A stretch of 23,418 nucleotides of DNA from Candidatus Baldrarchaeum yapensis (lineage in GTDB: Archaea > Asgardarchaeota > Baldrarchaeia > Baldrarchaeales > Baldrarchaeaceae), in assembly GCA_016840465.1 (NCBI GenBank), contig JAEOSH010000033.1:1-23418 (forward strand), written 5' to 3'. The position numbers and the translations under genes are program-made. Below are positions 2,870 through 13,174 of the stretch, piece after piece. The notes beneath the pieces are model-generated. The model was not told the DNA's origin. It did no database searches and worked only from the letters and a program-made list of their open reading frames with translations. The stretch's first letter is position 1. Each line of letters starts with the position of its first letter.

Positions 2870-3502
2870 TCAAGATTTTCCCAGACACTCCTCAATTTTT
2901 CCTTTCAACTTTTTCAATCCCCTCATTTTCCGTAATATGTATGCATCCTCCTTAAACTCTTGCTCAATCCTCGCAATAAGATCATTAATATATTCGAAAA
3001 CATCGACGTTAAGCAGATTACGGAGATACTCCCAATCTATTTTATCGATATGAAGGTACATTAGGTGGAGTGCGTCTTCAACATCCTTCTGCGAGCCCAG
3101 TATTCGTAATTTTGTAGCAATCAACTCTTCAAGTGGCGATATGGCAATTTCTTCTCCTCTGATATTAATAAATCTGCGCCTTCTTATTGTGGAGATATCG
3201 ATATCCGAACTGGCTATTTTAAAATCAATGAATCTTCCACCCTCGAGTAGCACGGTAAAATGACTTCTTTCTTCAAAAGCCACCATAACATCGTTTTTAT
3301 CGATAGTATATCCTGCGGATGTCAGTTCATCGACGACTTCCATTAGAGCGTTTGCATCTTCCACCTCTAACAAGATGTCTATATCTAATGTAGTGCGCTG
3401 GACGCCCAACAGAATTGCAGCAATACCCCCCACAACAGCATACCTCATTCCTTTCTTGCTCAACACTCTGCAGACATTAATAAGATGATCTACCATGTTC
3501 AT
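2870..3502 (-). CDS. Nucleotidyltransferase-fold protein (DUF6036/AbiEii-like)
   Basis: YAVVGGIAAILLG...RTTLDIDI gives the GG and DxD NTase motifs; C-terminal KL...QKDVED helix. Confidence 0.75.
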   Translation of the reverse strand: MNMVDHLINVCRVLSKKGMRYAVVGGIAAILLGVQRTTLDIDILLEVEDANALMEVVDELTSAGYTIDKNDVMVAFEERSHFTVLLEGGRFIDFKIASSDIDISTIRRRRFINIRGEEIAISPLEELIATKLRILGSQKDVEDALHLMYLHIDKIDWEYLRNLLNVDVFEYINDLIARIEQEFKEDAYILRKMRGLKKLKGKIEECLGKS

Positions 3503-3705
3503 CGGTTCAAGCCTCCCCCGAGGATCTTCTTCCTGAAGATCTTCCTAATAATCTTTCGGAACATGGCTGACTCTACAATTTTCTGTGAAATCTGGTCTTT
3601 ATCATATCCGTAATATTTTGTGAGAACCTCTATTGCTATTTTTAGCAATTTATCGGCCTCTTCGAGTCTCCTGATCCCCTGCTCAATAAATTCTCTTTCA
3701 TCCAT
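3499..3705 (-). CDS. Small helical basic protein, putative partner or antitoxin of the downstream nucleotidyltransferase
   Basis: 68 aa from ATG 3705 (MDEREF), 11 nt after the radical SAM stop. Its stop overlaps the NTase start by 4 nt. The ORF-track start at 3756 overlaps the upstream gene and is unlikely. Confidence 0.6.
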   Translation of the reverse strand: MDEREFIEQGIRRLEEADKLLKIAIEVLTKYYGYDKDQISQKIVESAMFRKIIRKIFRKKILGGGLNR

Positions 3706-6517: not shown

Positions 6518-6748
6518 TTAGGTAGTTATTTCCTTAACTACGTCTTCTTTCAATGCTGCCATCAAATCTGGTGGAATGGACACATTTCTTCCCTCGTCCT
6601 TCCATAGTTCCCTTCTGAGGAGGTCGCGAATTGCGACTCGTATCGCCTCGCTCCTGTTAGGGTACAATTTCTTAACTTTGACGAGTATCTCGAGTCCCTC
6701 GAGGTAGGCGTCGGGGATCTTGACTGATATTAACTTCATCCCCATCAT
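6518..6748 (-). CDS. Ribbon-helix-helix (CopG/Arc/MetJ) transcription factor, CdrS-like
   Basis: MKLISVKIPDAYLEGLEILV...YPNRSEAIRVAIRDLL: alternating beta ribbon followed by the PNRSEAIR helix typical of archaeal CdrS-type RHH proteins. Confidence 0.85.
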   Translation of the reverse strand: MMGMKLISVKIPDAYLEGLEILVKVKKLYPNRSEAIRVAIRDLLRRELWKDEGRNVSIPPDLMAALKEDVVKEITT

Positions 6749-7127
6749 ATCACCCGGATAGCACTAAGAACGTACGCTAATAAATATTATGCAATGATGA
6801 CGTATACACCGATTAGATGGCGCCATATGTGAGGTTGTAGTACGTTATAATAACTTGTGCGACTATGATTAATTTCATAATGTAACAAAAACCTAAGTTT
6901 TGTCGTTTCTCGATGATGCAAGACATTTGTCAACGAATAATATTCGAATTTCAGAGAATTCTTTTTGAATTTTTCCGTTCATGGTCACCTCTCTGATTAA
7001 CATCACAATTATACTACAATATTATAAGGAGAGTTGGCCCGTGGTGTGATGCATCAACCACTACATGTCAATGATATCTCAAAAAGAAGTCATTCAAAGT
7101 TCAGTGAATGACCATAGGTGCACTACA

Positions 7128-7186
7128 CGTGTCAGCGCCGAGCCTTCTTCATCCGACTGTCTGCTCCTACGTGGCTCATCATCCGA
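7128..7186 (-). ncRNA. Box C/D methylation guide sRNA
   Basis: The minus strand reads ATGATGA (C, 7182-7176), GCCACGTAGGAG (12-nt guide), CAGA (D', 7163-7160), 7-nt spacer, ATGAAGA (C', 7152-7146), AGGCTCGGCG (10-nt guide), CTGA (D, 7135-7132). This is canonical archaeal order and spacing in an intergenic position. Exact ends are approximate. Confidence 0.8.
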
Positions 7187-7198
7187 GTTACTGTCTCT

Positions 7199-7714
7199 TC
7201 ATTTGAATTTATACGATATGACCATAGTGGCTACTGTTGCAACGGTTAGAGCTATCAGGGCAGTCATCATGGGATCAAATAAGTTGGCACACGTTCCAGT
7301 AAATAAGATTAATGGAAGGAAAAAGATGCAATTTCCGGCCATTGCAGCGAGGTATATGTGGCTACGGCGCAACCCCATTAGCGTCATCACGGGGACAGCT
7401 ATGTAGAGCCAGACCACTGTTGAAAACATTACCATGGCGAGCAGTGTTCCGTGACGACCGAGCATCTTCTCGAGTTTCACCCGCTGTTTCTCAAAGAATT
7501 CCCTTAACCTCTTTACTTTCATTGCTATCAGGTAAAAGGGAATATGAGCCGCTGTTATTGCCACGATGAGAGATAAGAACCACAACATGAGGACCTGTAT
7601 CAGGTTCAGCGGCCCCGTAACCGCAATCGAGATAGCGGATAGTGTTATTACCGAGAATTGAGTCATTAGCATCAAGAAGAGTATCGCAACCATAAGTCCA
7701 TCCATTAAGAACAT
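7199..7714 (-). CDS. Small integral membrane protein (about 4 TM segments; small multidrug export/VTT-like)
   Basis: Four hydrophobic segments around a basic loop (KVKRLREFFEKQRVKLEKMLGRHG). GGAGG precedes the second ATG. Family call is tentative. Confidence 0.7.
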   Translation of the reverse strand: MFLMDGLMVAILFLMLMTQFSVITLSAISIAVTGPLNLIQVLMLWFLSLIVAITAAHIPFYLIAMKVKRLREFFEKQRVKLEKMLGRHGTLLAMVMFSTVVWLYIAVPVMTLMGLRRSHIYLAAMAGNCIFFLPLILFTGTCANLFDPMMTALIALTVATVATMVISYKFK

Positions 7715-7946: not shown

Positions 7947-9104
7947 ATGCGGAAAGTGGCAATTGTCGGTGTCGGGCACTCAAAGTTCGGGGACAGAAAT
8001 GATGTTACGTTCTCAGAATTGGCATGGGAGTCCATGAAACCGGCACTGGAGGATGCAGGACTTACGCCAAAGGACATAGAGATGCTAGTTGTCGGCAACA
8101 CCGGAATGTGGTCAGAGGAAGGATTGCCTGCTGTCGTAATCGCTGATTATGCGGGAATGAGCGATGCTGCACTCATAAGGGTTGAAGCCGCATGCGCAAC
8201 CAGCAGTGCTGCGCTCAGAACTGCATATCATGCAATAGCGTCCGGTGAAGTTGACATTGCAATGGCTGTTGGTATAGAGAAAATGAGAGAGGTGGATACT
8301 CCGATCGTGGTTGAGCTTATCGGACGAGCGGGTTACTACTACTGGGAGTTTGAGAACTTCGGGTTCACATTTCCCGCGTACTATGCGCTTCATGCAACTG
8401 CCCATATGGCAAAGTATGGAACCACCGAGGAACAGCTTGCCATGGTTGCAGTAAAGAATCACAAGTATGCGGTTAATAACGAGTATGCTCAATTCAGAAG
8501 AGAGATAACTGTCGAAGATGTGCTCAAGTCGAGACCAATAGCCTGGCCTCTCAAGCTACTGGACTGTTGCCCCATCACCGATGGATCTGCAACCGCGATA
8601 CTGGCAGCAGAAGAAGTTGCAAAGAAGTTGACAGATACTCCCATCTGGATTGCTGCATGTGAGGCCGCTGGTGGCACAGCAAATCTCAGCAAGCGAGACA
8701 GTTATGTTGGACTAAGGGCAGCTGTTCTCGCCGCTCAAAAGGCGTACAAGAAGGCCAAGGTGGGACCAGATCAGATAGACGTCGCGAATGTGCATGATTG
8801 TTTCACGATCGCAGAAATAATGGCATATGAGGATCTCGGCTTCTGCAAGAAGGGTGAAGGAGGAAAGTTCATAGAGGAGGGTCAGTCCTACATTGGTGGA
8901 AAGATTCCAGTGAACGTTGACGGCGGCTTAAAGGCGAAGGGGCACCCCATAGGGGCCACAGGCACGTCGATGATCTTCCACCTGGTAGAGCAGCTAAGAG
9001 GAGAAGCACCAAACCAGGCGGACATAAAGCATGGGTACGCGCTTGCTCATAACGTTGGTGGAACTGGTCATTACTGCTATGTGACGATATTGAAGAGGGA
9101 TTGA
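7947..9104 (+). CDS. Archaeal thiolase (acetyl-CoA C-acetyltransferase, SCP2/HDCF type)
   Basis: Catalytic Cys in EAACATS, plus VHDCFTIAE and KGHPIGATG motifs; followed by a DUF35 gene. Confidence 0.93.
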   Translation: MRKVAIVGVGHSKFGDRNDVTFSELAWESMKPALEDAGLTPKDIEMLVVGNTGMWSEEGLPAVVIADYAGMSDAALIRVEAACATSSAALRTAYHAIASGEVDIAMAVGIEKMREVDTPIVVELIGRAGYYYWEFENFGFTFPAYYALHATAHMAKYGTTEEQLAMVAVKNHKYAVNNEYAQFRREITVEDVLKSRPIAWPLKLLDCCPITDGSATAILAAEEVAKKLTDTPIWIAACEAAGGTANLSKRDSYVGLRAAVLAAQKAYKKAKVGPDQIDVANVHDCFTIAEIMAYEDLGFCKKGEGGKFIEEGQSYIGGKIPVNVDGGLKAKGHPIGATGTSMIFHLVEQLRGEAPNQADIKHGYALAHNVGGTGHYCYVTILKRD

Positions 9105-12918: not shown

Positions 12919-13174
12919 TTCCCGAAAATGTTACTTCTCACTTCGATCAGCACGCCATCATCAATCGGTAGCAATATTTCAAGATGGTATGCTAGAATAG
13001 CTTCTGCGAGGTTCTTCGGCAAATTATTGTTTGCATGATGACTATTGCAGTAATTGCCTCTTGTAATATTAATAAAATCATTCAGGGCATTTTTCTTCGC
13101 GAAAAGTGATTATTCGATTGTATTTTGGTCCTAAAACAAAATTCCGGAAGTCGTTGGGGCAATTATTTCCCGAA
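12919..13174. promoter_or_regulatory. Four TTCSSGAA palindromes, candidate operator sites
   Basis: TTCCCGAA 12919-12926, TTCGCGAA 13096-13103, TTCCGGAA 13142-13149 and TTCCCGAA 13167-13174; the last overlaps the BRE. Confidence 0.45.

Follow-up and report, generated by a model that had tools for sequence, protein, structure and literature searches.

An unannotated Asgard box C/D guide RNA with complementarity to leucine tRNA in both guides and a permuted form in a sister genus

On the minus strand of a contig of Candidatus Baldrarchaeum yapensis, positions 7182..7132 of the window (the whole stretch of DNA analysed, 23,418 nucleotides) constitute, judging from the sequence, a real and unannotated gene for a small box C/D guide RNA in a Baldrarchaeia-type Asgard host. 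We consider it probable that the product is a double-guide archaeal box C/D sRNA with both guides aimed at leucine tRNA, most likely at its unfolded precursor. The box architecture, its conservation, the complementarity to tRNA-Leu and the presence of the protein genes are observed in the genomes and are laid out below.

Architecture, genomic setting and conservation

Read on the minus strand from 7186 to 7128, the sequence is cucgg-AUGAUGA-GCCACGUAGGAG-CAGA-CAGUCGG-AUGAAGA-AGGCUCGGCG-CUGA-cacg, in which 7182..7132 comprises the full succession of C box, D' guide, D' box, loop, C' box, D guide and D box (Table 1). The complete C-D'-C'-D architecture claimed in the first-pass annotation is thereby borne out, and the guide sequences and complements given there are correct. 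The terminal boxes are an RUGAUGA-type C box and a CUGA D box, as is characteristic of archaeal box C/D sRNAs, and the internal D' and C' boxes retain the GA dinucleotides of a kink-loop and are joined by a short connecting loop, again as in this class. The D' spacer has a typical length, whereas the D spacer (11 nt in the homologues introduced below) is short compared with the usual ~12 nt.

Position 7186 is the 13th base past the UGA stop codon (7201-7199) of a same-strand gene for a hydrophobic protein with no Pfam family, exactly the distance first reported from a "membrane-protein gene"; the C box begins 16 nt past the same stop. The TATA-like element in the last codons of this gene could possibly be the sRNA's own promoter, and it shows no clear conservation in the syntenic homologue; the downstream U5 run is a possible archaeal terminator. 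The further neighbours, a ribbon-helix-helix (CopG) gene at 6518-6748 (-) and a thiolase gene at 7947-9104 (+), have no evident link to the sRNA. Just downstream, on the opposite strand, a weak sn2317-like Rfam match (18.5 bits, E 1, 7066-7113, +) was taken as chance.

Table 1. Features of the sRNA locus (window coordinates) and of its permuted homologues. L107 is the metagenome contig with the syntenic homologue; g2 is the sister genus.
Feature	Position	Strand	Remarks
C box AUGAUGA	7176..7182	-	from the sequence; same in L107
D' guide GCCACGUAGGAG, 12 nt	7164..7175	-	12/12 identical in L107
D' box CAGA	7160..7163	-	CUGA variant with GA kept; same variant in L107; g2 equivalent AAGA
D'-C' loop CAGUCGG, 7 nt	7153..7159	-	unconserved, CCGU in L107
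C' box AUGAAGA	7146..7152	-	RUGAUGA variant; same in L107; g2 equivalent AUGAUCU
D guide AGGCUCGGCG, 10 nt	7136..7145	-	first 8 nt same in L107; g2 core GCUCGGCC
D box CUGA	7132..7135	-	kept in every homologue
TATA-like TATAAATT	7206..7213	-	within the last codons of the upstream ORF, centre ~27 nt before the C box; possible promoter
U5 run	7081..7085	-	~47 nt past the D box; possible terminator
Upstream gene, 171-aa hydrophobic protein	7199..7714	-	syntenic neighbour, separate from the RNA
g2 sRNA	G003:C8 ~3440-3520 (L042)	-	permuted form
g2 sRNA	G004:C258 ~1620-1700 (L038)	-	permuted form
g2 sRNA, metagenome loci	L106, L108-L111, L113, L115, L118		permuted form

A strict motif scan (exact RUGAUGA and CUGA, internal boxes with GA, spacers of 9-13 nt) found 8 elements in the 2.27-Mb genome, compared with 0, 0 and 0 in three composition-preserving shuffles. 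For the 7 elements other than the present one, the same target routine returned host 23S rRNA targets of 9-12 bp, which served as a positive control, and one of these sRNAs has paired 23S sites 37 nt apart. The proteins of the box C/D RNP are encoded as well: fibrillarin (349 bits), an adjoining Nop5 (258 bits) and two L7Ae-family genes. At gathering score no Rfam family matches the element. In E-value mode the top matches at the exact place and strand are all archaeal C/D families, sR5 (24 bits, E 0.0017) being followed by sR2, sR23 and sR7, but the sR5 score lies below the 40-bit cut-off of that family and the likeness is confined to the boxes. Such a sub-threshold result is expected for a new guide RNA that has just the boxes in common with known ones. 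Folding of the locus with its flanks gave no structure signal (z 0.45) and no bulge-helix-bulge; a fold signal is not expected for C/D sRNAs. The element is a new member, with an Asgard host, of a well-described RNA class.

A homologue in the same gene context and with the same order of modules was found. In metagenome contig L107, the orthologue of the upstream protein is 62% identical and an sRNA stands at the same spot behind the gene, reading AUGAUGA GCCACGUAGGAG CAGA CCGU AUGAAGA AGGCUCGGGCU CUGA. From the C box through the D' guide to the D' box, 23 of 23 positions agree with the host, and the unusual C' box and nucleotides 1-8 of the D guide are identical too; the loop, both flanks and the final D guide bases differ, and the flanks do not align. 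Since boxes and guides have been kept despite 62% protein identity and a diverged loop and flanks, they are under purifying selection. The D guide of L107 is 11 nt long, with an indel beside the D box, and forms 7 bp with tRNA-Leu. Beyond this contig, BLAST of the locus against 40 relatives gave no match, and a search for the host-order pattern in 400 Asgard genomes returned just the locus itself.

Complementarity of the two guides to tRNA-Leu

The host stable RNAs scanned for guide targets comprised 41 tRNA matches, the full 23S rRNA and 16S rRNA positions 1-383 and ~650 to the end. The assembly lacks a 16S rRNA segment of about 270 nt (~384-650) and a few tRNAs. Within this set, the tRNA-Leu genes are the only RNAs matched by both guides. 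Positions 2-9 of the D guide form 8 Watson-Crick base pairs with GCCGAGCC, corresponding to G10-C17, in four of the five tRNA-Leu genes, a comparison that includes the intron-containing UAA and CAA genes; the fifth gene reads GCCGAGCU and gives 7 Watson-Crick pairs and a final G:U. The D-arm as a whole reads GCCGAGCC-A/C-GG in four genes and GCCGAGCUAGG in one. The suggestion in the first-pass annotation that the D guide may target the D-arm of a class II tRNA thus holds for tRNA-Leu, but 8 of the 10 guide bases pair, not all ten, and the host does not have the GCCGAGCCUGG that the annotation ascribes to such tRNAs. The fifth guide base upstream of the D box (N+5) lies opposite G13 of tRNA-Leu, in a C-G pair.

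The D' guide, to which the first-pass annotation had assigned no target, offers a somewhat longer match: its positions 3-11 form 9 contiguous Watson-Crick pairs with CCUACGUGG of tRNA-Leu(CAA), which attains the 9 or more complementary nucleotides in a host tRNA or rRNA that the first-pass annotation had set for a target, and 8 Watson-Crick pairs and one G:U with the other four tRNA-Leu genes (CCUGCGUGG). The complementary segment runs from the 3' strand of the variable stem across the three-nucleotide linker into the T-stem, of which it takes in the first four bases. At N+5, in an A-U pair, lies the U that directly follows the variable stem, three nucleotides ahead of G49 (Sprinzl region 46/47). 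At positions 1, 2 and 12 the D' guide is conserved yet unpaired with tRNA-Leu. Both target sites sit in helices of the folded tRNA, from which it follows that the RNP must meet unfolded or nascent tRNA.

For an archaeal guide, matches of 8 and 9 bp fall in the lowest part of the usual range. With shuffled guides, a D match of at least 8 bp arises with p ~0.40 and is therefore not significant alone; a D' match of at least 9 bp has p 0.09, and in 56 of 4000 trials the two arms matched a single RNA jointly (p 0.014). Taken by themselves, the host matches would lend moderate support to tRNA-Leu as the shared target, each single match being weak. Exact complements of the whole D guide (the 10-mer) occur 7 times elsewhere in the genome, approximately the chance number and never in a tRNA or rRNA, and the sole occurrence of an exact complement of the D' 12-mer is the locus itself.

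Two of the host genes, at C51:24506-24612 (-) and C67:69828-69940 (-), are tRNA-Leu(UAA) and tRNA-Leu(CAA), respectively, and ARAGORN mislabels both; the former has a D-loop insert, and in the latter the anticodon stem is interrupted by a 28-nt insert at a non-canonical position. The CCG motif of the D-arm might point to ac4C guidance as with snR4/snR45, an idea that was considered but that we do not claim here.

Ribosomal RNA is largely excluded as a target, as in a scan of all of contig C59 and of the 5' 16S piece on C78 neither guide has a match of at least 8 bp (full 23S rRNA, 16S rRNA 1-383 and ~650 to the end), and the variable-arm guides have no such match in six other Asgard 16S sequences. 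The 16S site CCACCGAGCCU of other Asgards was considered and rejected, the host reading CCACCAAGCCG there. The host 16S gene is split over contig ends, C78:19575-19958 (~1-383) and C59:1-838 (~650 to the end); C59 also carries the 23S gene, and a covariance-model search of the genome returned the C59 part of the 16S gene only. In the sister genus, 16S rRNA is absent from all four MAGs.

Permuted homologues in a sister genus

The core of the variable-arm guide (the D' guide of the host) between C- and D-type boxes recurs in just two other archaeal genomes, the Baldrarchaeota MAGs G003 and G004 of a sister genus (g2), to which nine further metagenome contigs can be added, with seven distinct variants in all. 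The 5' half of these RNAs reads (G/A)CCC G AUGAUCU (C/U)GCUCGGCC(AU/GU/UU/AA) CUGA followed by 13-15 AU-rich nucleotides, and the 3' half AUGAUGA AC(UC/CU)ACGCAGGAG AAGA GGG(C/U/A). A TTTATT element is conserved ~30 nt upstream, and the ends can form a 4-bp terminal stem that covaries (G-C, G:U, A-U) as GCCC/GGGC, GCCC/GGGU and ACCC/GGGU. Two other MAGs of the same genus, G001 and G002 (84% and 91% complete), have no homologue detectable by pattern or BLAST. Since g2 lacks a homologue of the upstream protein, synteny is unusable there. At G001:C8 ~12920-12965 (L103 ~1410-1455), the reverse complement reads GCCGAUGAAGA...CUGG...GCCGAUGG, with C/D-like boxes. Outside the archaea, 33 bacterial pattern matches were rejected as coding sequence or chance, many of them representing one conserved Lachnospiraceae coding stretch.

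The pairing of the g2 guides was assessed for G003, G004 and 6 distinct metagenome variants with the genus' own tRNA-Leu genes (L050, L051, L054), which share with the host the D-arm GUGGCCGAGCC and the stretch GGCCUGCGUGGGU. Positions 3-13 of the variable-arm guides form 10 Watson-Crick pairs and 1 G:U with GGCCUGCGUGGGU, and the same U as in the host is at N+5. Between the lineages, positions 6, 10 and 11 of the variable-arm guide vary, and as the changes are by C/U only and opposite purines, the pairing is kept. The D-arm guides form 8-9 Watson-Crick pairs and 1-2 G:U pairs with GUGGCCGAGC, which spans G7/U8-C16 of tRNA-Leu; the D-arm guides of host and g2 have a core in common, beyond which that of the host reaches to C17 and those of g2, in the opposite direction, to G9/U8, and both extensions fit tRNA-Leu. 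For both g2 guides, tRNA-Leu is the best match among the g2 tRNAs fetched. When the G003 guides were shuffled and compared with the host stable RNAs, a variable-arm match arose with p 0.011 and joint matches of the two arms to a single RNA with p 0.003, values to be read in the knowledge that the host and g2 lineages are not statistically independent.

The lineages also differ in the order of the two modules. In the host and L107 the order is [AUGAUGA-variable-arm guide-CAGA]-[AUGAAGA-D-arm guide-CUGA], and in g2 it is [AUGAUCU-D-arm guide-CUGA]-[AUGAUGA-variable-arm guide-AAGA]. The canonical box pair, formed by the C box of the variable-arm module and the D box of the D-arm module, is terminal in the host and encloses a loop of 13-15 nt in g2; the degenerate pair, formed by the C box of the D-arm module and the D box of the variable-arm module, encloses a loop of 4-7 nt in the host and L107 and is terminal in g2. 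As the modules are reversed (A-B versus B-A) and the box partners unchanged, the two forms are related by circular permutation.

Proposed function and relation to known guide RNAs

The assembly of an RNP on this sRNA, methylation of its substrate, a tether role for one arm and action on the precursor are what we infer from these data and from knowledge of the class. L7Ae would bind two motifs, the C/D kink-turn at the end of the RNA and the C'/D' kink-loop inside it, and two fibrillarins would be brought in by a Nop5 dimer. Upon pairing of guide and substrate, a 2'-O-methyl group would be placed on the ribose opposite the guide base that lies fifth upstream from the D or D' box. The D' guide would engage the variable arm on its 3' side together with the 5' strand of the T-stem, with the conserved U in methylation register, and the D guide the 5' strand of the D-stem and the beginning of the D-loop (G10-C17), with G13 in register. 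The methylation at about G13 predicted by the first-pass annotation therefore stands as far as the host register goes, but the site is not conserved, as N+5 of the D-arm guide drifts from G13 in the host to C12 in L107 (assuming a like tRNA-Leu) and C11 in g2. Given that only the D-arm register drifts, that of the variable-arm guide being constant throughout, the conserved methylation site is probably the variable-arm U. The D-arm pairing may mainly capture tRNA-Leu and hold it open, methylation of the D-stem being optional. We regard tRNA-Leu as the target of the family, more confidently where the variable-arm guide is concerned than in the case of the D-arm guide.

A bolder version of this proposal, which we hold to be possible though doubtful, is that the conserved role of the sRNA is not a pair of methylations but a two-point grip on nascent class II tRNA-Leu, in which the D-arm guide would be purely a tether or chaperone and the other arm would methylate the fixed U, the permutation being tolerated on the supposition that the mature RNA is circular or topologically equivalent. 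In Thermococcus, C/D sRNAs are circularised by a Pab1020-type RNA ligase. A search of the host genome gave no clear ligase of this type, the PF09414 matches being marginal (28 bits). These matches, at C1:74932-75450 and C84:40014-40499, lie inside ORFs of ~620 aa that are probably DNA ligases.

The irregularities of the D-arm guide could also mean that the sRNA is a single-guide RNA in which the variable-arm guide alone works and the D guide is an orphan or decaying, functionless arm in the host lineage. The short and variable D spacer (10 nt in the host, 11 in L107), the indel by the D box and the pairing of just 8 bp in the host and 7 bp in L107 are compatible with such decay, as is the observation that ~80% of the tRNA-targeting sRNAs of Pyrobaculum have one orphan guide (PMC6009581). 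We nevertheless find it unlikely, given that nucleotides 1-8 of the D guide are the same in the host and L107 despite saturated flanks, and that g2 keeps 10 bp with the same D-arm site.

Alternatively, the D guide may have as its substrate the anticodon loop of tRNA-Gly(GCC) (U33-C41, with N+5 at G37), only the D' guide serving tRNA-Leu. The host gene (C10:3049-3123) carries GCCGAGCC at nucleotides 34-41, in the anticodon loop and stem, with an additional G:U at guide position 1, and anticodon loops, which are single-stranded, are the best-documented tRNA targets of C/D guides (PMC7994747, PMC6313347). This assignment is quite improbable. One reason is the behaviour of the g2 guides (GCUCGGCC), which in a manual alignment form just 7 bp with tRNA-Gly of the host (the g2 tRNAs fetched being without tRNA-Gly(GCC)), compared with 8-10 bp with tRNA-Leu. 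In addition, the reviews consulted do not list position 37 among the tRNA sites that receive C/D-guided 2'-O-methylation, and the fit of both arms to tRNA-Leu would have to be a coincidence (p 0.014 and 0.003).

Finally, the notion that intergenic DNA merely resembles a set of C/D boxes by chance and contains no RNA gene, to which the lack of an Rfam match at gathering score and the absent fold signal might be thought to point, is very improbable and already contradicted by conservation, in view of the 8 scan matches with none in shuffles, an element almost perfectly kept where its flanks diverge, and g2 homologues that have a promoter-like element of their own and a covarying terminal stem.

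Assuming, then, that the sRNA is a double-guide RNA for tRNA-Leu, its closest counterparts are found in Pyrobaculum, whose sRNAs target many tRNA positions and in which both guides on one tRNA are rare but do exist (PMC6009581). The families sR46, sR61, sR123 and sR126 (Lui et al. 2018, PMC6009581) share the ~50-nt double-guide build, the N+5 rule and the complementarity of two guides to two sites of one tRNA. The present element differs from them in belonging to an Asgard phylum, in its sites (the D-stem and D-loop, and the variable arm and T-stem, of class II tRNA-Leu) and, in the host, in its non-consensus internal boxes CAGA and AUGAAGA and its 10-nt D spacer. The experimentally shown tRNA-directed C/D RNPs are of the same RNP type and likewise have a tRNA substrate, but their sites are in the anticodon loop or stem or in the T-loop, whereas the D-arm and the junction of variable arm and T-stem are predicted here; in the reviews consulted, neither of these two is listed as an experimentally shown C/D site. 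In the literature searched there was no description of C/D sRNAs for Asgard archaea, and a search on Um47 and Gm13-type modifications found nothing relevant.

Permutation has precedents as well. In Pyrobaculum, sR57 is a circularly permuted counterpart of sR56 whose target has moved by 2 nt owing to indels, and the route proposed for it is circularisation with subsequent re-insertion (PMC6009581); sRNA24 of Nanoarchaeum equitans is both permuted and circular (PMC3491384). As in these cases, the same two modules are found in reversed order in two lineages, and, as in the "target migration" of Lui et al., guide indels shift the N+5 target by 1-2 nt. Unlike sR56 and sR57, which are paralogues of one genome, the present RNAs are orthologues from two genera of one taxonomic order. 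In contrast to both sR56/sR57 and sRNA24, the host and g2 forms both keep the canonical box order, and in g2 the degenerate box pair is now terminal and closed by the covarying 4-bp stem.

What is new here is modest: an Asgard host, the pair of tRNA-Leu sites, a possible tether arm and an orthologous permutation. Its practical yield is likewise modest, consisting of an annotation, two predicted modification sites and a test case for the second guide as a tether. For the biology of the Asgard archaea, it would mean the gain of a conserved tRNA-directed box C/D guide, from which two unusual tRNA-Leu sites, one in the D-stem and one at the variable-arm junction, are predicted to be ribose-methylated or at least bound by the RNP. 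For the RNA family, it offers a clean orthologous case of circular permutation and target migration in a guide RNA, previously known from Pyrobaculum paralogues and one Nanoarchaeum gene (PMC6009581; PMC3491384).
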